From Gammaproteobacteria bacterium (lineage in GTDB: Bacteria > Pseudomonadota > Gammaproteobacteria > JBCCGL01), in NCBI GenBank assembly GCA_965277715.1, contig OZ255836.1, positions 1,056,001 to 1,120,000 of the forward strand: a DNA stretch of 64,000 bases, in the 5' to 3' direction. The notes beneath the pieces are model-generated. The model was given only the letters and a program-made list of their open reading frames with translations, was not told the DNA's origin and searched no databases. The translations under genes and the position numbers were made by a program. Below, in pieces: positions 1 through 11,907 of the stretch; position 1 is the first letter of the stretch; each line of letters opens with the position of its first letter.

Positions 1-1568
1 CTGAATACGACTCCGGGCTGTTCAACATCAAGCCCAATCCGTACAGGCCTGAACTGACCCACTTCGTCCATACGAATTGCATCAAGGGTGCAAATGCCGA
101 TGCCGTGCCAGCACGTTTTTTGCTGGCTTGCCGTAACGGTCATTTGGACGACTTCCCTTGGCACTGGTTCGTGCATGGCGGTCAGTCCGATTGCAGAGGA
201 ACGCTCCGTTTCTTCGAGTCAGGGGCTTCGCTGCAGACCGAAAATCTCTGGGTCAAATGCGACGCTTGTGGTGCATCAAAACAGCTGGCGAAAGCCTTTG
301 GTAAAAGCGGTCAGGAAAACCTCCCGGCTTGCCGGGGCCGCCATCCTCATCTCGACAAATTCGATGCGGATTGCAACGAGCAGCCTCGGGCGGTGCTTTT
401 GGGTGCCACGAACAGCTGGTTTCCGATCACGCTTTCCGTGTTGGCCATCCCCCTAGAGAAAAACCAACTGTCCCAGTTAATTCTCGATGGATGGGACCAC
501 TTTTACGAAGCTGAGTCTGTCGAGCAAATCAAGTGGATTGTAAAAACTCTATCCAAGACAAACAGTCTTCCCGGAATCGACAAATATGAGGCGGATGAAA
601 TCTGGCTTGCGGTACAGGATCGAAAAGATGGAAACGCTGCCGAACTCGTTTCCGAAGGTGACATCAAGGGGCCAGAATGGGATGTATTGATATCCCCGAA
701 TCCGCCGACGGACTGGCCGCACTTTTTGAGCAGCAAGGTTGCGAGACCGGAAACCTACAAGGATGTTCTGGAGTCGGTTCTCCTGCTCGAGCGCTTGAGA
801 GAAGTGAACGCTTTGATTGGATATACCCGTGTGGAAGCTCCCGAGGAATCGGCTGACGAAGACGAGCGACCACCAATGGCCGACCTTTGTAAAGGGAGAC
901 CCATCTGGATTCCTGCCGGTGAGGTCCATGGTGAAGGGATTTTTATCCGTTTCAACGAAAAGACCACTTCCGATTGGGAAAAGCTGGAAGCCGTCAAACG
1001 CAGGGACCAAAAAATCGAACAAGGTCACCGTGGGTGGAGAAACGCCCGTGGCCTCGACTCGGAAGTCGGCTATCCCGGAATCAGATATACCATGCTGCAC
1101 TCATTCGCCCACCTGTTGATCAGGGAGCTGGCACTGGAATGTGGTTACAACGCGGCAAGTATCCGGGAACGGATCTATGTCGGTACTGGTGAGTCACCTA
1201 TGGCTGGTGTTCTCATCTATACCGCCGCTGCAGATTCCGATGGAACGCTCGGTGGTCTGGTCGAACTTGGAAAACCCGAGAACCTCGGCCGTCTGATCGA
1301 ACAGGCGCTGAACAGGTCCATGGTATGTTCATCCGATCCTCTCTGCTCTGAACACAATCCAAGCGAAGACCGGTCACTCCATGCAGCCTCATGTCACGCC
1401 TGTACATTCGTTGCCGAAACATCCTGTGAAAGAGGCAACCGCTATCTGGACAGGGCATTGCTGGTGGAGACGTTCGAATGCAAGGATGCCGCATTTTTCA
1501 AAAAAGTGACCAAGGACTACTATTGCGTCGCTGAGGAACAAGCTCCATACGGATCGGCGGAGAAGTGA
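1..1568 (+). CDS. drmB: DISARM DrmB (DUF1998 helicase-associated protein), 5'-partial
   Basis: Frame is open from the window start (EYDSGLFNIKPNPYRP...PARF). It has the ACRNGHLDDFPW, LHSFAHLLIRELALECGYNAASIRERIY and CSSDPLC...CHAC...ETSCE motifs typical of DUF1998/DrmB, and is directly followed by a PLD gene. Confidence 0.9.
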   Translation, partial: EYDSGLFNIKPNPYRPELTHFVHTNCIKGANADAVPARFLLACRNGHLDDFPWHWFVHGGQSDCRGTLRFFESGASLQTENLWVKCDACGASKQLAKAFGKSGQENLPACRGRHPHLDKFDADCNEQPRAVLLGATNSWFPITLSVLAIPLEKNQLSQLILDGWDHFYEAESVEQIKWIVKTLSKTNSLPGIDKYEADEIWLAVQDRKDGNAAELVSEGDIKGPEWDVLISPNPPTDWPHFLSSKVARPETYKDVLESVLLLERLREVNALIGYTRVEAPEESADEDERPPMADLCKGRPIWIPAGEVHGEGIFIRFNEKTTSDWEKLEAVKRRDQKIEQGHRGWRNARGLDSEVGYPGIRYTMLHSFAHLLIRELALECGYNAASIRERIYVGTGESPMAGVLIYTAAADSDGTLGGLVELGKPENLGRLIEQALNRSMVCSSDPLCSEHNPSEDRSLHAASCHACTFVAETSCERGNRYLDRALLVETFECKDAAFFKKVTKDYYCVAEEQAPYGSAEK

Positions 1569-2341
1569 TGAATACCGATATCTGGCAAGTCATAGCTGAC
1601 ATCGGGATTGAACTTCATCCCGATCGGGTAAACGCTATAGCGGACAAGATAGCCGGTCTGTCTTCGGTGGACGAGTTTTGCAAGGCGAGTTCGGGATTCG
1701 GCCCGGCTGCCAACAAACCGATGATGAACGCACTGGAAAAGGCATGGAAGAAAGATCCCGGGGTTTCACCTCTAGAACTTGCTGCCGCTTTGCGTGGCGC
1801 ATCCGGAACGGCCTCGATCATGGAAAATCGGGAAGCGGTCGAAATGGTCTGGACAGGTCCCTTCACGGGGCTGGTCGCCTCCAGGCATACGGAACAGGTT
1901 TTACTCGAGGTGATAGGTTCCGCGAGATGGCGGCTCTTCATTATCAGCTTCGTCGCCTACAACATCGACTCGGTCAAGAAGGCACTGCAGGATGCTGTAG
2001 GTAGGAATGTCAAGATTGACATCTTACTGGAGTCGTCGAAGGCCCATGGTGGGAAGATCGATATCGACTTGATAGACGCTTTTAAAAAAGCGATACCTTC
2101 GGCCAACGTCTATGCGTGGAATTCAGAATCGAAATCCTCTGATCGCTGGAACGGAGCCGTCCATGCCAAATGCGCCGTTGCCGACGGCGCCCTCGCTTTC
2201 ATCACCAGCGCCAACCTCACCAGAGCGGCCATGGAAAACAACATGGAACTGGGAGTGCTGGTCCGTGGAGGCAATCTGCCGGAAAAACTCGAAAGGCATC
2301 TGGAAGCCTTGGTGACGACGGGAGTAATAGGGAAAATCTGA
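1565..2341 (+). CDS. drmC: DISARM DrmC phospholipase D-family nuclease
   Basis: VWTGP motif and a single HKD motif (VHAKCAVADG...ITSANLT...NMELG); overlaps the drmB stop. Confidence 0.88.
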   Translation: MMNTDIWQVIADIGIELHPDRVNAIADKIAGLSSVDEFCKASSGFGPAANKPMMNALEKAWKKDPGVSPLELAAALRGASGTASIMENREAVEMVWTGPFTGLVASRHTEQVLLEVIGSARWRLFIISFVAYNIDSVKKALQDAVGRNVKIDILLESSKAHGGKIDIDLIDAFKKAIPSANVYAWNSESKSSDRWNGAVHAKCAVADGALAFITSANLTRAAMENNMELGVLVRGGNLPEKLERHLEALVTTGVIGKI

Positions 2342-2769
2342 TGGATACAGTCGACACCAAAACCCGTTCCAAGATCATGAAAAGTGTCCCTCAGAAGGAC
2401 ACAAAGCCCGAAATGCGCCTCAGAAAAGCGCTGCATGGGATGGGGTTTCGGTATCGACTGCACGACAAAAGGTTACCCGGTTCTCCGGATCTGGTTTTTC
2501 CGAAATACAAGGCCGTCATCTTCGTGCATGGCTGTTTCTGGCACCGGCATGGCTGCAAGCAGACCACGACGCCTTCGACGCGTGAGGACTTCTGGAAGGC
2601 CAAATTCGAAGCCAGTGTCGAACGCGACAAAAAGAATGTCAGTGACCTCGAAACGGCTGGTTGGCGCGTGATGACCGTGTGGGAATGCGAACTGAAGAAA
2701 GCGGCTGAGAATGACCTTTTTGAAAAGATACGGGAGCTTTTGCTCTATCGAATGAACGAGACAACCTGA
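2341..2769 (+). CDS. vsr: Very short patch repair endonuclease Vsr
   Basis: MDTV...RSKIMKSV..KDTKPE, LPGSPD, IFVHGCFWHRH, GWRVMTVWEC. ATG at 2341 overlaps the drmC TGA. Confidence 0.93.
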   Translation: MDTVDTKTRSKIMKSVPQKDTKPEMRLRKALHGMGFRYRLHDKRLPGSPDLVFPKYKAVIFVHGCFWHRHGCKQTTTPSTREDFWKAKFEASVERDKKNVSDLETAGWRVMTVWECELKKAAENDLFEKIRELLLYRMNETT

Positions 2770-2778
2770 AATAAAGGA

Positions 2779-5328
2779 TCAACCATGACTGTAGATCTGT
2801 GAAATATTGTTGAGCTCCGCGCCATCACCCGACTTATCACCCATTTCCTGTTGAATCGCCAGAGACTGTTCCAAGTAGGCCAGCGCTGTTTCGTAATCAC
2901 TTAAGTGAAGATATTGCTTGCCAATCTGCCCCAAGGCAGTTGCTCTAATCTGGCGATTACTGGTTTTTAACAACGGTTGCAACCATTCTTCCAACAGCAC
3001 GGTATAGCGACCTGCACGATTTAGCGGCCCCACTACCCAGCGCAACACCAACTGATGCGCTTGATCATCCTGTTGCGCCACCGTCAATGCTTGATGGGTA
3101 GCCAAGCGGTGCTGCCAACTTCGGTTTAACCCTTCTTCTAATTGCCAACGTAAAAAGTCTGCGGCGGCACATAACCATACCCCCTTCGGTGGTTCTACAG
3201 CGTTTTTCGGCAGCCAGCTAAGCACTAATGGCGAGAGCAGGTATTCGGTTTGCCCACTGTCTGGGTTGTGGTATTGCTCCAGCAGTGAAACAGCCAGTAG
3301 CTTGTTTGTTAGCAGCAAAGCTTTTTGTGGATGGTAATCACTCTCAAATATACGCATCAACACTTTGATGCCTTCTATTGGCACCGGTGTTTGGTAAGCT
3401 TGCAGTGCGTGCAATAACGTCACTTCATCGTCGCTACGCTGCGCGACGACTTGTGCCAATGCCATATTGGTTTGTATTTCTGCCTCCGCTTGTTGCAGGC
3501 GGTTAAGAAAATTGTGCTCCTCGGTTATATCCATGCCTTTGATTGCGCGGGCGAAAAATTCCAATGCGCGAAAGTTACCCCCCAGCGTTTCATAGGCCTG
3601 GCGCATCCGCTTCGGCTCTAAGCACAGTTGCTGGTGACGGGCAAAGGTCAGGTAGTCGCCGTATACCGGACGCCCCAGGGCATAGTGTTGTGCATCCGGC
3701 CAATCCGGCAATCGCCAACGCGAGGTTAACAACAGTTTTAACCCTGGCGATTCAGCGCCTTGGCTAAGGCGGTAAGCGCTGTTGATCCAAAGCATTAGCG
3801 CTTCGTTTTGAAGTCCATGAGGTGATTCAGGCTGCTGTATCGATTCCAGGTTATCAAACAGTAGAACCAGTTTGGACTGGTGCGCACTCACCAGTTTGTT
3901 CAAAAATACTTCAATAGCATCGGCATCGTTAAGCCCGGCGTCTGTGTCTTTTTCTCCTTCCGTCAGTTTTTGCAACGAAGTGGCCATGCTCCCAATGGTT
4001 TGCCGCCAATCGTGCCCCGGGCGCAGTGAAAAAGTAAATAGGGTGTAGCCGTCTTTGCGCAGGGTATCTAACAGCTTGCCCGCCAGTGCAGTTTTACCGG
4101 TGCCGCCTGCACCGCTAATTAAGAGGGCGCGAATATCGCCCCGCCGCAGGCCGTTTTGCCATCGGCGCAATTCTCGACGGCGACCGATAAAGCGTCCCGG
4201 AACCGTAATGCCCCCCAGCATATTGACCAAAGCAGGTCGTTTTCGGGGTTTCGGGGTGAATCGCCAGTCGATTAGCTCTCGTTGATAGGCGTGGCTAAGC
4301 AATTGTGGCAGGCACCATTGACCATAGGAAAACGCTAACCGCTCCGGGCTGAGGCTGTCTTTGTATACACTGTCTTTTAACGGTTGGGTGATCGCCGCTC
4401 GTGCTGTTTGTAATGAGATTGCCACCGATTGTTGATTACCAATGCTCGCCAATAACGCCTTGGCGAATTGAATGCCGATTTTGTCAAAAACCGACTCGCG
4501 CATCCCAATAACGTGGGGAATGCCCGCTTGGTAAAATGCTTGGCTAAGCCCGTTTTCCGGGTAGTCCGGGTGTTGTCGGGCGCTTAAACAAGCCGATAAC
4601 ACCAGTAATTCCACACGCGTATTTTGAAAACAGCGAACCATATCTTCCTCAAAAACCTCCTGGTCCTCACCCCATTCGCCTTCAAACAAGAAACTGCCTT
4701 GGGCGTTTTGCTGGTGTAATTCGTGACGAAATAAACCGTGGCCACTGAGGTAGACGATATGGGGTTGGAAATCTTGCAGGCTTTGACGAAAGTGATCAAG
4801 GCGGCCATCGTCGGGCATTTCCAGCTCGATCAGCCCGGCTTGTTCAGCGGCCATTAATGCTTCTTGTACATCGGCCTGCTCAGCTTCTACATCCAGCCGT
4901 TGGCCCTCCTCTAAACCATCTGGCAGAGATGTAAATAAGAGCACGCGCAAAGGGCCAATCGCGCTATCTGGCAAGCCGATTTCCAGCGCTGGATTGTGCC
5001 GGGATAAGGTAAAGCCAGGCTCTCGCCCAACAAAACCATATTTCGGGTGATACAGGGCTTCCCACGGTAGGGACAACACCGCCGGATCGGCGGACTGAAC
5101 AATAATCGGCAAGGCCTGCTGGCCGCAGCGTTGTTTGGCTTTGCTTAATGCCTCGTCTTGTTGTAGAGCGTTGGCCAGCGCACTACCGATGTGACGCAGC
5201 ACGTCGTCGTCCACCACTTGTCGTTTTTCGTAGGCTTCACTTAAGCGTTTGGCCAGTGTTGTGAGCTCGGGGTGTTGGGCCAACCAATCCGCAGTCGGGG
5301 CAATAATTAAAGGTGCAGGTGCTGGCAT
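2779..5328 (-). CDS. CHAT (caspase-like) protease + STAND/NB-ARC-like NTPase + TPR protein, C-terminal TPR array apparently truncated
   Basis: CHAT dyad YLSGHG / VLSAC; Walker A GAGGTGKT, Walker B LLFDNLE, sensor LLLTSR; one TPR (ALGQIGKQYLHLSDYETALAYLEQSLAI) then the start of a second (ELNNISQIY) ending abruptly in SHG*. Confidence 0.85.
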   Translation of the reverse strand: MPAPAPLIIAPTADWLAQHPELTTLAKRLSEAYEKRQVVDDDVLRHIGSALANALQQDEALSKAKQRCGQQALPIIVQSADPAVLSLPWEALYHPKYGFVGREPGFTLSRHNPALEIGLPDSAIGPLRVLLFTSLPDGLEEGQRLDVEAEQADVQEALMAAEQAGLIELEMPDDGRLDHFRQSLQDFQPHIVYLSGHGLFRHELHQQNAQGSFLFEGEWGEDQEVFEEDMVRCFQNTRVELLVLSACLSARQHPDYPENGLSQAFYQAGIPHVIGMRESVFDKIGIQFAKALLASIGNQQSVAISLQTARAAITQPLKDSVYKDSLSPERLAFSYGQWCLPQLLSHAYQRELIDWRFTPKPRKRPALVNMLGGITVPGRFIGRRRELRRWQNGLRRGDIRALLISGAGGTGKTALAGKLLDTLRKDGYTLFTFSLRPGHDWRQTIGSMATSLQKLTEGEKDTDAGLNDADAIEVFLNKLVSAHQSKLVLLFDNLESIQQPESPHGLQNEALMLWINSAYRLSQGAESPGLKLLLTSRWRLPDWPDAQHYALGRPVYGDYLTFARHQQLCLEPKRMRQAYETLGGNFRALEFFARAIKGMDITEEHNFLNRLQQAEAEIQTNMALAQVVAQRSDDEVTLLHALQAYQTPVPIEGIKVLMRIFESDYHPQKALLLTNKLLAVSLLEQYHNPDSGQTEYLLSPLVLSWLPKNAVEPPKGVWLCAAADFLRWQLEEGLNRSWQHRLATHQALTVAQQDDQAHQLVLRWVVGPLNRAGRYTVLLEEWLQPLLKTSNRQIRATALGQIGKQYLHLSDYETALAYLEQSLAIQQEMGDKSGDGAELNNISQIYSHG

Positions 5329-5352
5329 AGTATTCGTCCTTATCGGCGTGGG

Positions 5353-5619
5353 TTATTCTTCGTTGGAACCGCTCAGTGCATCGGGTAGTGTCAGTTCGAT
5401 AGGTGCTGTGTTATCGACACCACCTATTTGCCCTCCTCTGTAGGCAGTCATTTTATTCATCGCATAAACGCTTAGATCCACATTAAACCGACAATCACAA
5501 TACGGGCATCTAACAGAAATGTTGGGATCATCGTCCGCGTCCAATAGGCTGGGATAACGAAATTTAAAATGATCTTTACACTGCTTACAATGTGTGGTTC
5601 GTAGAACGTAATGTTGCAT
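5353..5619 (-). CDS. Small Zn-ribbon protein (CxxC...CPxC) with a low-complexity acidic tail
   Basis: HCKQC ... CPYCDC; AAGGA RBS upstream; 24 bp from the CHAT gene, same strand. Confidence 0.7.
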   Translation of the reverse strand: MQHYVLRTTHCKQCKDHFKFRYPSLLDADDDPNISVRCPYCDCRFNVDLSVYAMNKMTAYRGGQIGGVDNTAPIELTLPDALSGSNEE

Positions 5620-5631
5620 GGATATATTCCT

Positions 5632-6099
5632 TTAAATAAAAATACTCAGCACCGCTAAAACGATGCCGAAGAAACTGCTGATACAAGCCCAAACCAGGTA
5701 TTTAAGCTTAGCGCTGGCGGAATCACTAAAGTAACGCTGAATCGCCAAGAGATCGTCAGGGTCGACTTCTCGCTTTTGCGGTAGCAAACAGGCTAAGGAG
5801 AGGCCAAGCGCGAGTAACCAGAGTACAAAGGAAACGCCGATTGAGGTTACATTGCCAATCGCTTGATCACCGCCACTCAGCAGTTTTAAAACCGCCGCGT
5901 AGACGCCCGGTACGGCGATATTCAGGGTAATCAGTTGTTTAGCCAAATCATCCATTCGGTTGGCTTGCGCAGCCACATCGCTGGCGAAGCATTCCAGTAG
6001 TTTTTCGTCTACTTTACTGAGTGGCATTCCCTCAGCTTGATAAACCGGTGGATCGTTATCCGCAGGGCTATCCTGATTGGCGGGGTTATCCTCGGTCAT
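5632..6099 (-). CDS. Three-helix membrane protein resembling PycTM/DUF5706-type effectors
   Basis: Three hydrophobic segments with the pattern MDDLAKQLITL.. / ..LACLLP / SAKLKYLVWA..; acidic N-terminal extension; 12 bp upstream of the Zn-ribbon gene. The family resemblance is judged by eye. Confidence 0.6.
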   Translation of the reverse strand: MTEDNPANQDSPADNDPPVYQAEGMPLSKVDEKLLECFASDVAAQANRMDDLAKQLITLNIAVPGVYAAVLKLLSGGDQAIGNVTSIGVSFVLWLLALGLSLACLLPQKREVDPDDLLAIQRYFSDSASAKLKYLVWACISSFFGIVLAVLSIFI

Positions 6100-6394
6100 T
6101 ATTCGTGTTCCTAGTGATTAATACCTTTATTAAAAAAGCAATGCCATTATTTGCTGGAACAGCATGTAAGAAATTTGTAAAGCTATCGGTTTGGCTATCT
6201 CGATTGGTTTTGTTGTATAAAACATCACCCTATTATGTTTTTAATTATAGAAAACGCCCATCAATAATCAATAACGGCCTTTTTCACCCCCGTAAAAAAG
6301 GAAGAGACGATCAAACCATGTATCCACTCGCTAAATTGATCGCCGCGCTTTCGCGCCTATTTGGTAGTAGCGATTGCCTTGAATGTGCTATCTA

Positions 6395-6453
6395 CATCGC
6401 CTCAACAGCCAACGCAATGCCCTGCCCACCGCCAATGCACATTGTGGCAATAC
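6395..6453 (-). repeat. Displaced copy of the thiolase 3' end (continues at 8061-8071 beyond the IS)
   Basis: 6395-6453 + 8061-8071 equals 8827-8896 (70 bp, 3 mismatches); encodes ..KHYGIATMCIGGGQGIALAVEAM*. Confidence 0.9.
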
Positions 6454-8056
6454 CCCTGTGTGTCAACCTCACCTCAAGCCAATATGATTTAAGTTAACAT
6501 CTAAATCAGGGCAGCTATCGAGAGTGAGAACAATGCCAAAACCAATGTTAGATAAACCACAACCTGAGTCATGTGAGATCAAGCCTGATCGGACACTTGA
6601 GAAAAAGACTCGCCGCACTTTTACAGCAGCCTATAAGCTAAAGATGATCAATCAAGCTGATGCTTGCCAGCATGGACAGCTTGGCGCTTTGCTACGCCGT
6701 GAGAAGCTTTACTCCAATCAATTGTCTCAGTGGCGAAGAGAACTGGCCGAAGGCGGTTTGTCAGGGCTATCAAAAAGTGCGCCCGGCCCTGCACCGCAAA
6801 TGACGTCTGAGCAGCGCCGGATAGCGCAGCTTGAAAAACAAGTAAACCGTCTGGAAAAACAAATCGTCCTTAAGGATGACTGTCTGGAACTCCAAAAAAA
6901 AGCCTTGGCGATGCTCGACCGATTGAACAGCGGGATCGAGCAGTGAATACCGCGTTGACTGACCGCCCACCCTCAGTGTCCCAACGTCTGGCTTGTAAGG
7001 TATTGGCATTGTCACGGTCACACGTCCGGGCCAAGCAAAGCCGCCGCCATTTCTGTGGCCCTCCCAAACCAGCAGGAACCGTGCGAATCACTTGCCATCA
7101 GCCACGCCAACTGAGTGAAGAAGAATGCTCTGTGGTATTGAATACGCTCAATAGTGAAGCGTTCTATGATCAACCACCGGCGCAGGTTTACCATACCTTG
7201 CTGAGTCGCCGTATTTACCTCTGCTCCATCAGCACCATGCACCGCCTGCTGCGTCAGTCCGATCAGTCGGGGGAACGCCGAAAACAGCGTCCTGGGCAAA
7301 CCAACGCAGTGCCAAGGCTTTCGGCCAGTCAGCCTAATGAGGTCTGGACATGGGATATTACAAAATTGGCCACCGTTAAGCGCGGCGTTTATTTATCGCT
7401 CTATGTGGTGATGGATTTATTCAGTCGCTACATCGTGGCCTGGATGCTTTCCCATAAAGAAAACAGTGCACTGGCACAGCAGCTCATTCAGGAGGCCAGT
7501 ACACGTTACGCGATTAGACCCAACCAGCTGACGCTGCATCAGGATCGAGGGGCACCGATGACCGCACATTGCTACCTTGACTTACTGGGCGAGTTGGCGG
7601 TCACCGCTAGCCACAGCAGACCCCGCGTGAGTAATGACAATCCTCATAGTGAAAGCCAATTTCGAACACTGAAGTATCAGCCTGACTACCCGCGTCGCTT
7701 TGATAGCTATAGCCATGCCAATGGATGGTGCACTGAGTATATTGATTGGTATAACCATCAGCACTGTCACAGTGCGTTGGAGGGCTTCACACCTTGTCAG
7801 GTGTTTACTGGGCAGTACATACCACTCAGTGAGGTTCGTCAGCAGGCACTCAATGAAAAGTATGTCCAACATGCAGAGCGATTTGTCAATCAGCGGCCTG
7901 TTGTCAGGATGCCGCCTGCGAAGGTCTACATTAATCCCGTGCGCGATGAACTGGGTAATATAGATCACGATGCACCCGTCAACTTCCCAACACTAAATCG
8001 GGCTAAATATATGGTAACTTGAGTAACTGTGGCTTGAAACAGGTTGACACCTTCCG
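6454..8056 (+). mobile_element. IS3-family-like insertion sequence (orfA 6524-6946, orfB 6943-8022)
   Basis: HTH orfA plus rve DDE orfB (WTWDIT, LHQDRG, SNDNPHSES). Terminal IRs GTGTCAACCT..TCAAGCCA; ATAC duplicated at 6450-6453 and 8057-8060. The A-run at ~6894-6901 puts orfB in the -1 frame of orfA. Confidence 0.92.
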
Positions 8057-8107: not shown

Positions 8108-8413
8108 ATGGAATATGAAGTCGCTTCCACAGCCATTTTTAAAAAATGGCTAAAAAGCCTAAGAGACCGGCAGGCCGTTAGGGCTATTGCAATGCGTATC
8201 ACACGTGCCGAAACAGGTAACATGGGTGATGTGAGCAGCGTGGGTGGTGGTGTCAGTGAAATGCGAATTTTTGTAGGCAAAGGGTATCGGCTGTATTTTA
8301 CGATTCGCAAGCAAAAATTGATCATATTGCTGAACGGCGGCGATAAATCCAGCCGACAACAAGACATTGATCACGCAAAAAAATTGGTGGCGCAACTATT
8401 AGAGGTTAGGTAA
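8108..8413 (+). CDS. RelE/HigB-like addiction module killer toxin (HI1419 type)
   Basis: F..WL.SLRD..A...I..RI.R...GN.GD..SVG.GVSEMRI..G.GYRLYF...IILL.GGDKS. Confidence 0.9.
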   Translation: MEYEVASTAIFKKWLKSLRDRQAVRAIAMRITRAETGNMGDVSSVGGGVSEMRIFVGKGYRLYFTIRKQKLIILLNGGDKSSRQQDIDHAKKLVAQLLEVR

Positions 8414-8694
8414 TGGCAATTAAAACGACAGCGTTTAATCCGGTTGATTTTTTTGAATCACCAGAAGAGATATCAGATTATCTGAACGACGCTTACCAAG
8501 ATGCAGACCCTGCTGTGTTTGTGGTGGCGCTGGGACATGTTGTGCGCTACAAGGGGGTTGCAACACTAGCTGAAAAGACTGGTTTAAATCGTGAAAGTTT
8601 GTATAAGGTGTTCAGCGGCAAAGCTCAGCCCAAGTGGGATACGCTTCACCGTTTACTGCACGCACTAGACGTGCGGGTAACGCTGGCAGTGTAG
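8413..8694 (+). CDS. HTH addiction module antidote (HI1420/HigA-like)
   Basis: F.P.DF.ES.EEI..YL...ALG.V.R.KG...LAEKTGLNRESLYK; coupled to the toxin stop, toxin-first order. Confidence 0.9.
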   Translation: MAIKTTAFNPVDFFESPEEISDYLNDAYQDADPAVFVVALGHVVRYKGVATLAEKTGLNRESLYKVFSGKAQPKWDTLHRLLHALDVRVTLAV

Positions 8695-8820: not shown

Positions 8821-10014
8821 CTACTCCATCGCCTCAACAGCCAACGCAATGCCCTGCCCGCCGCCAATGCACATTGTGGCAATCCCATAACGCTTACCCG
8901 TGCGCCGCAGTTCGTGCAGCAGCTTCACGGTAATCACCGCCCCTGTCGCGCCTATCGGGTGCCCCAGAGCAACCGCACCACCGTTTGGATTGACTTTCTC
9001 AGCCGGTAAGCCCAAAGCTTTACTCACGGCACATGCCTGCGCGGCAAACGCTTCGTTGGATTCGACAATATCAATATCGGCAACGCTAAGCCCCGTGCGT
9101 TGCAGCAATAACTGCACAGCCGGTACCGGACCAATCCCCATTTCAGACGGTTCCACCCCGGCGTGCGCATAGCCAAGAATACGCGCCATAGGTTGACAAC
9201 CACGCTGTTCTGCCAGTGCACGATCCATCAACACCAACGCCGCAGCACCATCATTCAGGCCAGAGGCATTGCCCGCCGTCACAGTGCCGTTTTCTTTTTG
9301 AAAGGCCGGGCGCAACTTTACCAAGTCATCGATAGTCGCGTTTTCACGCACATGCTCGTCTTGTTTGAACACACTCACCTGGCCACGGCGTTTCAGCTCC
9401 ACCGGCATAATTTGTGTTTCAAACCAACCTTGCTGGATGGCATTAGCCGCCCGGCGGTGACTTTCCAGCGCAAACTCATCCTGCTGTTCCCGGCTAATAC
9501 CCCATTTTTTCGCCACATTTTCAGCGGTGATCCCCATATGCCCATGGCCAAAGGGGTCGTGCAGGGCCGCCATCATCATATCCACGGCAGTACTATCGCC
9601 GAGACGTTGGCCCCAACGCATAGCCGGTAACAAATGGCCTGCTCGGCTCATGTTCTCGGCGCCACCGGCAAGTGCCACTTTTGCATCACCGAGCATAATC
9701 GCCTGCGCAGCGGAGACAATCGCCTGAATACCGCTCCCACACAAACGATTAACCGTTAGCGCGGGCGTCTCTTTGGGAATGCCTGCATTGATTGCTGCAA
9801 CGCGTGAGATATACATATCACGCGCCTCGGTGTGGATCACATTACCCAATACCACATGGCCCACGGCTTCAGGCTCTACTTCTGCGCGTTTTAATGCCTC
9901 ACTACACACCAATTGTCCCAACTCACAAGGTGATTTGTCTTTCAGGCTACCACCAAAACCGCCCACCGCCGTGCGTACGCCATTGACAATTACCACTTCA
10001 TTAATGCTGGACAT
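8821..10014 (-). CDS. Acetyl-CoA C-acyltransferase (beta-ketothiolase, BktB-like)
   Basis: VNRLCGSG, NEAFAAQ, GHPIGATG, MCIGGGQG motifs. Confidence 0.95.
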   Translation of the reverse strand: MSSINEVVIVNGVRTAVGGFGGSLKDKSPCELGQLVCSEALKRAEVEPEAVGHVVLGNVIHTEARDMYISRVAAINAGIPKETPALTVNRLCGSGIQAIVSAAQAIMLGDAKVALAGGAENMSRAGHLLPAMRWGQRLGDSTAVDMMMAALHDPFGHGHMGITAENVAKKWGISREQQDEFALESHRRAANAIQQGWFETQIMPVELKRRGQVSVFKQDEHVRENATIDDLVKLRPAFQKENGTVTAGNASGLNDGAAALVLMDRALAEQRGCQPMARILGYAHAGVEPSEMGIGPVPAVQLLLQRTGLSVADIDIVESNEAFAAQACAVSKALGLPAEKVNPNGGAVALGHPIGATGAVITVKLLHELRRTGKRYGIATMCIGGGQGIALAVEAME

Positions 10015-10905: not shown

Positions 10906-11206
10906 GCAAATCTTTAGATCTAAATCATGTAGCGAGATCCACTTAAATAGCAAGCAAGTGATAAAACCTCATTTGCTAAATTATTAATTAGGCAAATATA
11001 GGCATGTCGTCACTTGAAACACAGAGTCTAGTACCTGGCGTTGAGAAATTATTCAGAGGTATACTTAACCCATCTTTGACACTCATTCTTAAAAATTTAA
11101 ATTACAACAATGAGTTAAATTTTTTTGTTCAGTCAATTAACATTTGTACCACCCTCCCAGGTTTGTTGATATTTCCAACCCATCACTCTCGCAACGGGCA
11201 GGCTCA

Positions 11207-11690
11207 ATTCTTTCTACTGCCAAATGGCTCAGGAAGTGTTCAAGATATCCTGTTTCAAGCTGGTTAATGGATTTATCCAGATGCTGACTGAAAAAACGCT
11301 TGGCCCAATGTATATAAGACAGCTCCGTGCGAATGGCGTATTGCCGCGTGCGGATCAAAGTACGCATTGCATCGAGTGTTTCTCCATTAAGGGCATGCAC
11401 CGCAGTATTATGTATCGGCCTTGGTTTTTCCCTGGGTAATTTCCCAGGGTAATTTCCCTGGGTAGCTTCCCTGGAGACTCGGGCAATAGACAGATGATCA
11501 ACCGGCAGATCGCGCACAGTATTTTTCCAACTATCCCAGTTGAATAAACTGCTCCAATCGAGTTTGACGACATCCACCAGCATAATTTCTATTGCGTGTA
11601 ATAGCTGCGCATATTGCCAGTCCAGCATCCAACTCTGGCGGCCTGTTCCCCGTAAGTAGCCCGTTAGTTCGCTTCATTGATCTTGCTTCG
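11207..11690 (-). pseudogene. intI: Integron integrase N-terminal remnant (SAM-like domain; catalytic domain missing)
   Basis: MRTLIRTRQYAIRTELSYIHWAKRF...FLSHLAVER matches the IntI N-terminus. It is preceded by the LTGYL..GRQ..DWQY..W extension of long IntIs, has an in-frame stop upstream, and similarity ends after LAVER. Confidence 0.8.
11428..11479. repeat. 13-bp tandem repeat x4
   Basis: TTCCCTGGGTAAT, TTCCCAGGGTAAT, TTCCCTGGGTAGC, TTCCCTGGAGACT. Confidence 0.85.
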
Positions 11691-11734: not shown

Positions 11735-11907
11735 TTCTGTATAGTCCTTTAACCTAAATTCCGCAGTTGAATCGTAGCGAGGGCGTCTAGGGTGCTGAAG
11801 CTGAAATGCTGGTAAAAGCGCTTTAGATTCTGTGCATCAGGTGCTCGCAGTAGATTCAACTGCGGAATTTAGGTTAACGTCGTGTTCTGTATAGTCAACT
11901 GTTATAT
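11735..11907 (+). other. Putative attI site interrupted by the MITE
   Basis: Direct repeat TTCTGTATAGTC at 11735 and 11885 and a GTTATAT core at 11901, between the divergent intI remnant and the first cassette. Confidence 0.55.
11753..11873. mobile_element. 121-bp MITE
   Basis: Perfect 21-bp terminal IRs CCTAAATTCCGCAGTTGAATC / GATTCAACTGCGGAATTTAGG, with TTAA on both flanks. Confidence 0.85.

Follow-up and report, generated by a model that had tools for sequence, protein, structure and literature searches.

Gene content of the locus

The window analysed here is a 64-kb stretch of gammaproteobacterial DNA (64,000 nucleotides of contig OZ255836.1). Near its left end, between positions 2779 and 6099, lie three adjacent genes on the minus strand. 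The first encodes a small membrane protein, the next a protein with a zinc ribbon, and the third a large protein that combines a CHAT protease domain with a STAND nucleoside triphosphatase (NTPase) module and TPR units. We refer to these genes, in the 5' to 3' direction, as A, B and C. The genes and the site upstream of them are as follows:

5632 to 6099, minus strand: gene A, 155-amino-acid membrane protein with three long helices, putative effector (open reading frame and translation)
5353 to 5619, minus strand: gene B, 88-amino-acid four-cysteine zinc-ribbon protein (open reading frame and translation)
2779 to 5328, minus strand: gene C, 849-amino-acid CHAT-STAND-TPR protein with a truncated C-terminus (open reading frame, Pfam, alignment and tblastn)
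6244 to 6271, minus strand: promoter-like site about 145 bp upstream of A (TTGATT, 16-nt spacer, TATAAT; 10 of 12 matches)

The listing of open reading frames and their translations confirmed the initial annotation of this DNA in that the three genes are co-oriented and separated by only 12 bp (A-B, 5620-5631) and 24 bp (B-C, 5329-5352). An AGGA motif is located 8-10 nt 5' of each of the three ATG codons. The promoter-like site is a consensus match only, as a scan returned four such sites against 4.3 expected from shuffled sequences; it lies inside 3495-6299, a stretch common to near-identical contigs of other sequencing runs (see below).

C is a CHAT-STAND-TPR protein

Three regions of C are recognised by their domain matches and motifs:

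4264 to 5187, minus strand: CHAT caspase-like protease domain, C residues 48-355, dyad H197/C247 (Pfam PF12770)
3718 to 4194, minus strand: STAND P-loop NTPase core, C residues 379-537, Walker A at 406-413, Walker B D492
2791 to 2943, minus strand: remaining TPR unit(s), C residues 796-846 (TPR_12, TPR_1)

Pfam assigned residues 48-355 to the CHAT family with an E value of 5.5e-32 and 111.8 bits, above the cut-off of 24. Both residues of the catalytic dyad, H197 and C247, are invariant in an alignment of 23 sequences (the C of the window and 22 relatives), and the motifs of the dyad can be aligned to SAVED-CHAT chain 8tl0_A, the nearest solved CHAT by sequence (E 2.9e-08). Behind the protease domain, AAA_16 matches residues 379-498 with 40.8 bits (cut-off 32.6), NACHT stays just below its cut-off (23.2 against 26.7 bits) and NPHP3_N also matches. 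In the same alignment the Walker A residues G408, G409, G411, K412 and T413 and the Walker B residue D492 are invariant. With both Walker motifs and, in the full-length relatives, a repeat sensor, C has the hallmarks of a STAND/NLR-like NTPase. The TPR matches at 796-846 all fall under their Pfam cut-offs; in the full-length relatives, the alignment consensus contains a long array of near-identical 40-residue TPR units, which is followed by a distinct C-terminal cap. The Pfam matches and the invariant residues together bear out the original description of C: it is a CHAT-STAND-TPR protein in which both the catalytic and the NTPase motifs are undamaged.

Conservation of the three genes

A scan with the C alignment, using one genome per species, yielded 80 loci, of which 66 belong to the family (L001-L066) and 14 are distant CHAT/STAND loci (L067-L080). 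Profile hidden Markov models of A and B were derived from the window proteins and iterated on the open reading frames of these 80 loci. Among the family loci, A was matched in 51 and B in 56, and neither was found in any of the 14 distant loci. Both genes are present in 49 of the 56 family loci that extend at least 900 bp upstream of C; 46 of these 56 show the order A-B-C on one strand, two the order C-A-B and one an inverted A, and the others hold B only (three loci), A only (one) or neither (three). We did not score the loci with neither gene (L005, L030 and L044) as real absences, since a C-A-B order is possible in all three: the contigs of L005 and L030 end with C, and that of L044 continues for only about 500 bp behind it. 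The median gaps across the family loci are 6 bp between A and B and 22 bp between B and C.

When the search was anchored on A, we obtained 80 metagenome loci. Of the 66 loci that extend 350 bp or more downstream, 63 have B behind A, and all 27 loci that are informative on both sides contain C; the order was A-B-C in 47 loci, C-A-B in 10 and both in one. Among sampled genomes, the B profile gave two strong matches in the class of genome G001 (299 genomes), both beside A and C, and seven matches in the phylum of genome G303 (401 genomes), where A accompanies B in seven cases and C in six. Altogether, A adjoins B in nine of nine B-anchored cases and C is present in eight of nine.

The trio turns up in dozens of unrelated contigs, far more than chance would allow, and an accidental adjacency of the three genes was rejected on the counts from the C-, A- and B-anchored searches. 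A, B and C thus form a conserved three-gene operon or module, and the co-occurrence elsewhere, on which the initial annotation had made its proposal depend, was found from all three directions. A fourth conserved gene was not detected, as no other neighbour cluster is found in more than five of the 66 loci; genes for integrases, ABC ATPases, Uma2 nucleases and transposases are recurrent neighbours of the trio. Each of five genomes examined contains a single A gene.

According to the record titles, the 66 loci comprise 31 of Chloroflexota type, 20 of Gammaproteobacteria type and three of other Pseudomonadota, together with six from Chlorobiaceae, three from SAR324, two from Desulfobacteraceae and one from Bacteroidia. 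The loci of Gammaproteobacteria type include Thiothrix, Thiofilum, Beggiatoa relatives, Thiohalocapsa and Competibacteraceae.

B and its predicted complex with C

All 46 B members share the four cysteines C11, C14, C38 and C41, and Zn_ribbon_8 matches 31 of the 46. The AlphaFold2 model of B (predicted local distance difference test score, pLDDT, 74) consists of a beta-sheet head (residues 1-50), a disordered linker (56-68, pLDDT < 50) and two short C-terminal strands. Position 61, which lies in the disordered linker, is occupied by Arg in 34 and by Lys in 10 of the 46 members (44/46 for either); two hydrophobic residues precede it and Gly, Ser, Asp or Asn follows. In the tail there is a Leu-Pro motif, whose P79 is found in 45/46 members, and the family alignment gives the consensus Leu-Pro-Glu-Val-Leu-Pro-Thr for residues 78-84.

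In a search of 1.84 billion representatives, the B profile found 623 relatives at E <= 1e-3 and 180 at E <= 1e-10, almost all of them stand-alone proteins of 75-100 amino acids. A Foldseek search with B returned generic zinc ribbons at a best E value of 0.54. The PADLOC model PDC-M14A matches 23 of the 46 members (best 2.3e-4), in the zinc knuckle only.

For the complex prediction, full-length C and B were each supplied with their own alignment in three runs, next to three controls. The interface score ipSAE reached 0.57, 0.65 and 0.66 in the B-C runs and 0.00 in all three controls. Of 80 solved complexes, 58 attain the ipSAE mark, as do 2 of 110 mismatched pairs; these counts hold only roughly here because our own alignments were used in the prediction. 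The runs agree in at least 93% of the contacts, with a partner pLDDT of at least 61. The confident contacts connect residues 6, 16-21 and 36-40 in the zinc-ribbon head of B with residues 650-659, 667, 691-693 and 725-734 of C, and define the following region:

3127 to 3381, minus strand: predicted docking surface for the zinc ribbon of B, C residues 650-734, between NTPase and TPR

This region is outside any Pfam annotation and is presumably the winged-helix or arm part of the STAND module. The linker and the tail of B were not placed with confidence in the complex model. Taken together, the modelling supports the idea that the zinc-ribbon head of B binds the STAND arm of C. Because it is docked on this arm and not at the CHAT site, B looks like a core partner of C and not just like a substrate of the protease.

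A, a putative membrane effector

The AlphaFold2 model of A, based on 50 relatives (pLDDT 86.9), contains three long helices at residues 29-74, 84-105 and 117-154. Q45, W94, K131 and G145 are invariant among the 50 aligned members. Helices 2 and 3 are joined by a loop with many Lys and Arg residues; by the positive-inside rule, the N-terminus and this loop are predicted to be cytoplasmic.

The A protein of the window belongs to no Pfam family in a Pfam scan and has no match to PycTM (PF18967) at E <= 0.1. Among the 50 members, 12 match PF18967 below its cut-off of 27.2 bits (best E 0.0086), so that A cannot be assigned to this family. Two PADLOC models of PycTM match nine and five of the 50 members (best 2e-4), and the PADLOC models of '2TM' effectors match one or two members each, below threshold. 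A distant relationship between A and PycTM is possible, since precomputed PF18967 labels are attached to 28 of 120 listed A relatives, the A of the window included. The initial annotation had taken A for a PycTM-type effector; the 12 sub-threshold matches lend this weak support, but the Pfam model is silent in three genomes that bear A (see below). Those of the listed relatives that bear a name are all called 'hypothetical protein' except for two with other automatic Joint Genome Institute (JGI) names. NCBIfam provides no family for A or B, and the protein atlas returned only unnamed clusters. The top row of the Foldseek search with A is NINJ1, an animal protein of plasma-membrane rupture, which we mention as a lead only.

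An acidic N-terminal extension of A had also been considered as a target of the protease. It is special to the copy in the window and has no conserved counterpart in the family alignment. As a conserved cleavage target it was rejected, with a basic residue in the N-terminal motif of only 24 of 48 members. The disordered N-terminus shows the consensus Pro-Ile-Pro-Thr-Arg-Pro at residues 21-28 in the family alignment. A hydrophobic-Pro-Thr element is common to this segment and to the tail of B (78-84), a likeness that may be due to chance.

Other proteins in the position of A

In three loci, a different protein occurs in the slot of A. A 476-amino-acid protein with a weak Aspzincin_M35 match (E 7.8e-6, under the cut-off) is encoded ahead of B and C in L013 (4034-5464), a 150-amino-acid protein with two hydrophobic helices between B and C in L042 (5104-5556), and a 144-amino-acid protein, whose C-terminal part has a hydrophobic helix with many small residues, ahead of C, without B, in L044 (30-464). 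None of the three is related to A, which for the L042 and L044 proteins was seen by profile comparison. These loci suggest that B and C are the constant core and that the third gene varies, which would suit an exchangeable effector. In L056, the remaining locus with B but no A, B looks degenerate.

Truncation of C in the window

The lengths of the C family were taken from the best 120 of 488 relatives found and are mostly between 950 and 1400 amino acids. Judged from these homologues, the C of the window is short of roughly 100 to 550 C-terminal residues. We used five homologues, four full-length proteins and the 623-amino-acid protein P0004, as tblastn queries against the 64-kb window. The homology of the four full-length proteins stops at 2788-2791, and all later TPR repeats of the homologues map back onto the single remaining unit. 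A remnant of the lost end was not found elsewhere in the 64-kb window by tblastn. Only about 1.5 repeats are left of the TPR array, and the homology break leads directly into the end of the gene:

2779 to 2790, minus strand: truncation junction, three unrelated codons and a stop after the homology break

The stop codon of C is 10 bp from that of the convergent vsr gene. Both the family lengths and the tblastn break at 2788-2791 confirm that the TPR array of this copy is truncated, as had been suspected.

P0004 is a 98% identical relative of C, which is encoded on a 9010-base contig and has a different end. Compared with positions 3495-6299 of the window, this contig differs by 16 letters and three gaps. 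The same stretch, 3495-6299, is present at about 99% identity in contigs of three runs labelled as sponge metagenomes (X4, X5 and X6, from two other studies), in which positions 1500-2354 and 2697-3380 of the window are uncovered. The contigs of these runs retain A, B and the first ~611 codons of C, and their sequence is unlike the window beyond 3495 and 6299. They represent a second, different truncation of C in a different genomic setting, which matches P0004. Hence, C is cut at different places in two versions of the locus, both of which retain A, B and the 5' part of C. The copy in the window is probably a disabled, decaying remnant, inactive because nearly all of the TPR sensor is lost. 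A further disruption of the module was seen in L060 (5195-10069), where a DDE transposase gene (6698-7867) lies between B and a shortened C.

Genomic setting

The following features surround the three genes:

3 to 1568, plus strand, cut by the window edge: drmB (PADLOC E 2.7e-78; Pfam MZB)
1565 to 2341, plus strand: drmC (PADLOC 6e-99; PLD-like)
2341 to 2769, plus strand: vsr endonuclease gene, converging on the truncated C
6392 to 6454 and 8824 to 8886: direct repeat of 63 nt, 95% identity, the second copy being the 3' end of the intact thiolase gene
6524 to 8022: IS3-family element between the 63-nt copies
8108 to 8694: Gp49/HigB-type toxin and helix-turn-helix antidote between the 63-nt copies
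8821 to 10014, minus strand: intact thiolase gene
11137 to 11628, minus strand: open reading frame of an N-terminal integrase fragment

The genes drmB and drmC constitute the 3' part of a DISARM system that, together with vsr, abuts C. On the other side, to the right of A, an AT-rich spacer is followed by the orphan copy of the thiolase 3' end (6392-6454). The layout of the 63-nt repeats looks like an insertion that carried or duplicated the end of the thiolase gene. The setting in the window is a defence and mobile-element island, and the loss of the 3' end of C at the border to DISARM and Vsr fits a rearrangement within this island. Two repeat structures were recorded further to the right: three overlapping copies of a 22-nt unit with 13-nt spacing at 11427-11474, inside the integrase-fragment reading frame, and a perfect 25-nt inverted repeat with a 79-nt spacer at 11749-11877, near that frame.

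Comparison with known systems

No system-specific PADLOC model matches the trio, either with the window proteins or with the family members. The 23 C members matched 13 PADLOC families, namely generic TPR models together with the weak candidates PDC-S39 (nine members) and PDC-S73 (seven members); neither an Avs nor a bNACHT model is among these 13 families. A description of the trio was not found in the literature searched, although a prior mention may hide in subscription journals or supplements. The trio is thus apparently not a named system, in line with the initial annotation. The nearest systems on record are the EACC1-caspase pair and the gasdermin-CHAT operons, with which it has its logic in common; both of its small proteins differ from theirs, and it has a zinc ribbon of its own that resembles an adaptor. 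We regard it as a real, apparently unnamed variant of the protease-NLR cell-death systems with a mechanism that we infer.

The neighbours of bacterial gasdermins are CHAT proteases with a fused NACHT, TPR or other repeat part, and cleavage sets the gasdermins free (Johnson et al., 10.1101/2021.06.07.447441). The operons presented there, in which CHAT or C14 proteases are fused to NACHT, TPR, LRR or WD40, resemble the trio in the logic of proteolytic activation and in the position of an NLR-type protease beside a membrane-damaging protein, a role that is putative for A. Unlike these operons as presented there, the trio encodes a 155-amino-acid three-helix protein of an unnamed family and has a zinc-ribbon protein between the two genes. 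No gasdermin was among the Pfam families listed for the A and B members, nor is any further neighbour conserved, which sets the trio apart from the gasdermin operons.

The gene order is shared with the EACC1-caspase system. In Kaur et al. 2020 (PMC7159879), a 5' gene for a small transmembrane protein precedes a 3' gene for a caspase fused to STAND NTPases and repeats, and the transmembrane protein is proposed to sense and the caspase to act. As described there, the system is like the trio in that a small transmembrane protein gene lies 5' of a caspase-superfamily protein with STAND and repeats, and in that it is found mainly in bacteria of multicellular habit. C has the 3' caspase domain with a variable C-terminal part (STAND and repeats) that is outlined there. 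Unlike the EACC1-caspase pair as outlined in that source, A has three helices and a third gene encodes a zinc ribbon. EACC1 was absent among the best 25 of 27 Pfam families matched by A and the best 25 of 122 matched by B, so that neither can be assigned to it. Pfam includes a model of EACC1.

PycTM (PF18967) and the CBASS '2TM' effectors are, like A, small helical inner-membrane proteins, and they kill the cell in their systems. In contrast to PycTM and Pycsar, all matches of A are below the cut-off and the trio has no nucleotide-binding domain; the cyclase, which is the partner in Pycsar, was not found among the conserved or recurrent annotated neighbours in the 66 loci. Avs and bacterial NACHT proteins have the architecture of C, with the effector domain at the N-terminus, then a STAND NTPase, and the repeat sensor at the C-terminus, and their activation is driven by oligomerisation. 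They are mostly single genes, whereas the trio has two constant small partners. The CHAT proteases of type III CRISPR systems (SAVED-CHAT 8tl0, Csx29-Csx30) are activated by cyclic oligoadenylate or target RNA and cut a specific protein encoded beside them. Unlike these, C has a STAND-TPR module fused to the protease and no CRISPR context.

Proposed function and alternatives

With moderate confidence, we propose that the three genes represent one copy of a conserved conflict module, which most likely serves abortive infection or programmed cell death and in which C is the sensor-executor, B its partner and A the effector. The C-terminal TPR array of C would sense an invader or stress ligand and the STAND NTPase would drive oligomerisation of C, whereby the CHAT domains would be brought together and activated by proximity. 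B would be an obligate small partner, its zinc-ribbon head sitting on the arm of C between NTPase and TPR, and its linker with the near-invariant Arg/Lys would be the most likely first cut site or a regulatory pin. B may then be cut at the conserved basic residue or be released in another way, and A, a three-helix inner-membrane protein, would damage the membrane once it is released or assembled.

A more specific version of this proposal is tentative. The trio may be a small bacterial equivalent of an inflammasome to which a third part, acting in trans, has been added: a zinc-ribbon adaptor would sit on the winged-helix arm, and after ligand sensing by the TPR array and assembly of the oligomer by the NTPase, a CHAT cut at the Arg/Lys would license a swappable effector. 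In this version, the effector would usually be a three-helix pore-former unrelated to gasdermins, and B and C would represent a general 'sensor plus safety pin' core to which various killers could be attached.

Several observations weigh against the proposal of a conflict module. The sensing step, the cleavage of B, the harm that A does to the membrane and the function in phage defence are all inferred. The likeness of A to known effectors is below every curated cut-off, and PF18967 had no match at E <= 0.01 in three of three genomes that each hold an A gene. The structural searches point in the same direction: Foldseek of A against the Protein Data Bank (PDB) gave no significant result (best NINJ1, 9bia, E 0.07, TM scores 0.33/0.46), and VIA-align over about 48,000 chains gave generic helical bundles with a best Z of 9.5, below the level that is meaningful for helical proteins. 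Since B is predicted to sit on the STAND arm, away from the CHAT active site, the single pointer to its possible cleavage is the conserved basic residue in a disordered loop. The effector swap is suggested by three loci (L013, L042 and L044). A Chloroflexota genome has an A-B pair (L175:7122-9166) with no C within 7 kb, followed by an integrase-like reading frame. The link to a defence island was seen for this window and not family-wide, many neighbours in other loci are housekeeping genes, and the bias of the loci towards filamentous bacteria was read from record titles, without statistics.

Among the alternatives, the main one is a reversal of roles, which we consider unlikely: A and B would form a membrane-associated sensor or anchor, A would signal a perturbed membrane, B would couple this to the STAND arm, and CHAT itself would be the effector and cut many proteins of the cell. 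The sub-threshold effector likeness of A would suit this alternative, as would the predicted docking of B on the regulatory arm of C instead of the protease site, and it corresponds to the proposal for the EACC1-caspase system with its like gene order in Kaur et al. 2020 (PMC7159879). However, a TPR array that is large and varies in its repeats is already part of C, and STAND proteins usually sense through such an array; the soluble M35-like peptidase in the slot of A (L013) fits an effector better than a membrane sensor. Moreover, the weak matches of A are to membrane effectors, PycTM and CBASS-type 2TM.

It is quite improbable that the module has a purpose other than defence against phages, namely developmental or social cell death, kin discrimination or regulated proteolysis in bacteria that grow as filaments or aggregates. 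Most record titles do name groups such as Anaerolineae, Thiothrix, Beggiatoa relatives and Thiohalocapsa, which are filamentous or aggregate-forming, and housekeeping genes make up many of the neighbours in other loci. Kaur et al. 2020 (PMC7159879) and a paper on hypermutated antigen sensors tie such systems to multicellularity and discuss kin recognition. On the other hand, the module of the window is located between the DISARM-Vsr block and insertion sequence and toxin-antitoxin elements, and the family is rare and patchy (2/299 and 7/401 sampled genomes). These features, together with its variable flanks, often with integrases or transposases, and its ready decay, are typical of mobile defence genes.

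Least probable is that the copy in the window is still active, with a TPR-less C that is constitutively primed and either checked by B or paired with another sensor. In its favour, some eukaryotic NLRs become auto-active when they lose the repeat domain, neither A nor B nor the CHAT and NTPase motifs of C are damaged, and two forms of the operon, cut at different places, both keep its 5' part. Against it, the sensor domain of all full-length relatives is gone, and two truncations within ~99% identical copies resemble recent decay and not design. RNA runs listed for the stretch numbered none, which has no bearing on whether it is expressed.

Biological meaning

The copy in the window is itself of lesser weight and illustrates the decay of costly systems in defence islands. 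The family has the wider meaning, as one CHAT-STAND-TPR family is accompanied, in at least six bacterial groups, by two families of small proteins that had no name before. Protease-coupled NLR-like systems tie bacterial immunity to eukaryotic inflammasomes and apoptosomes, and a defined substrate or effector is at hand in few of them. The conflict-module proposal makes specific, testable predictions, namely the docking surface between C 650-734 and the head of B and the candidate cut site at R61 of B. If true, the trio would provide a new family of membrane effectors and a new way to control a caspase-like NLR.

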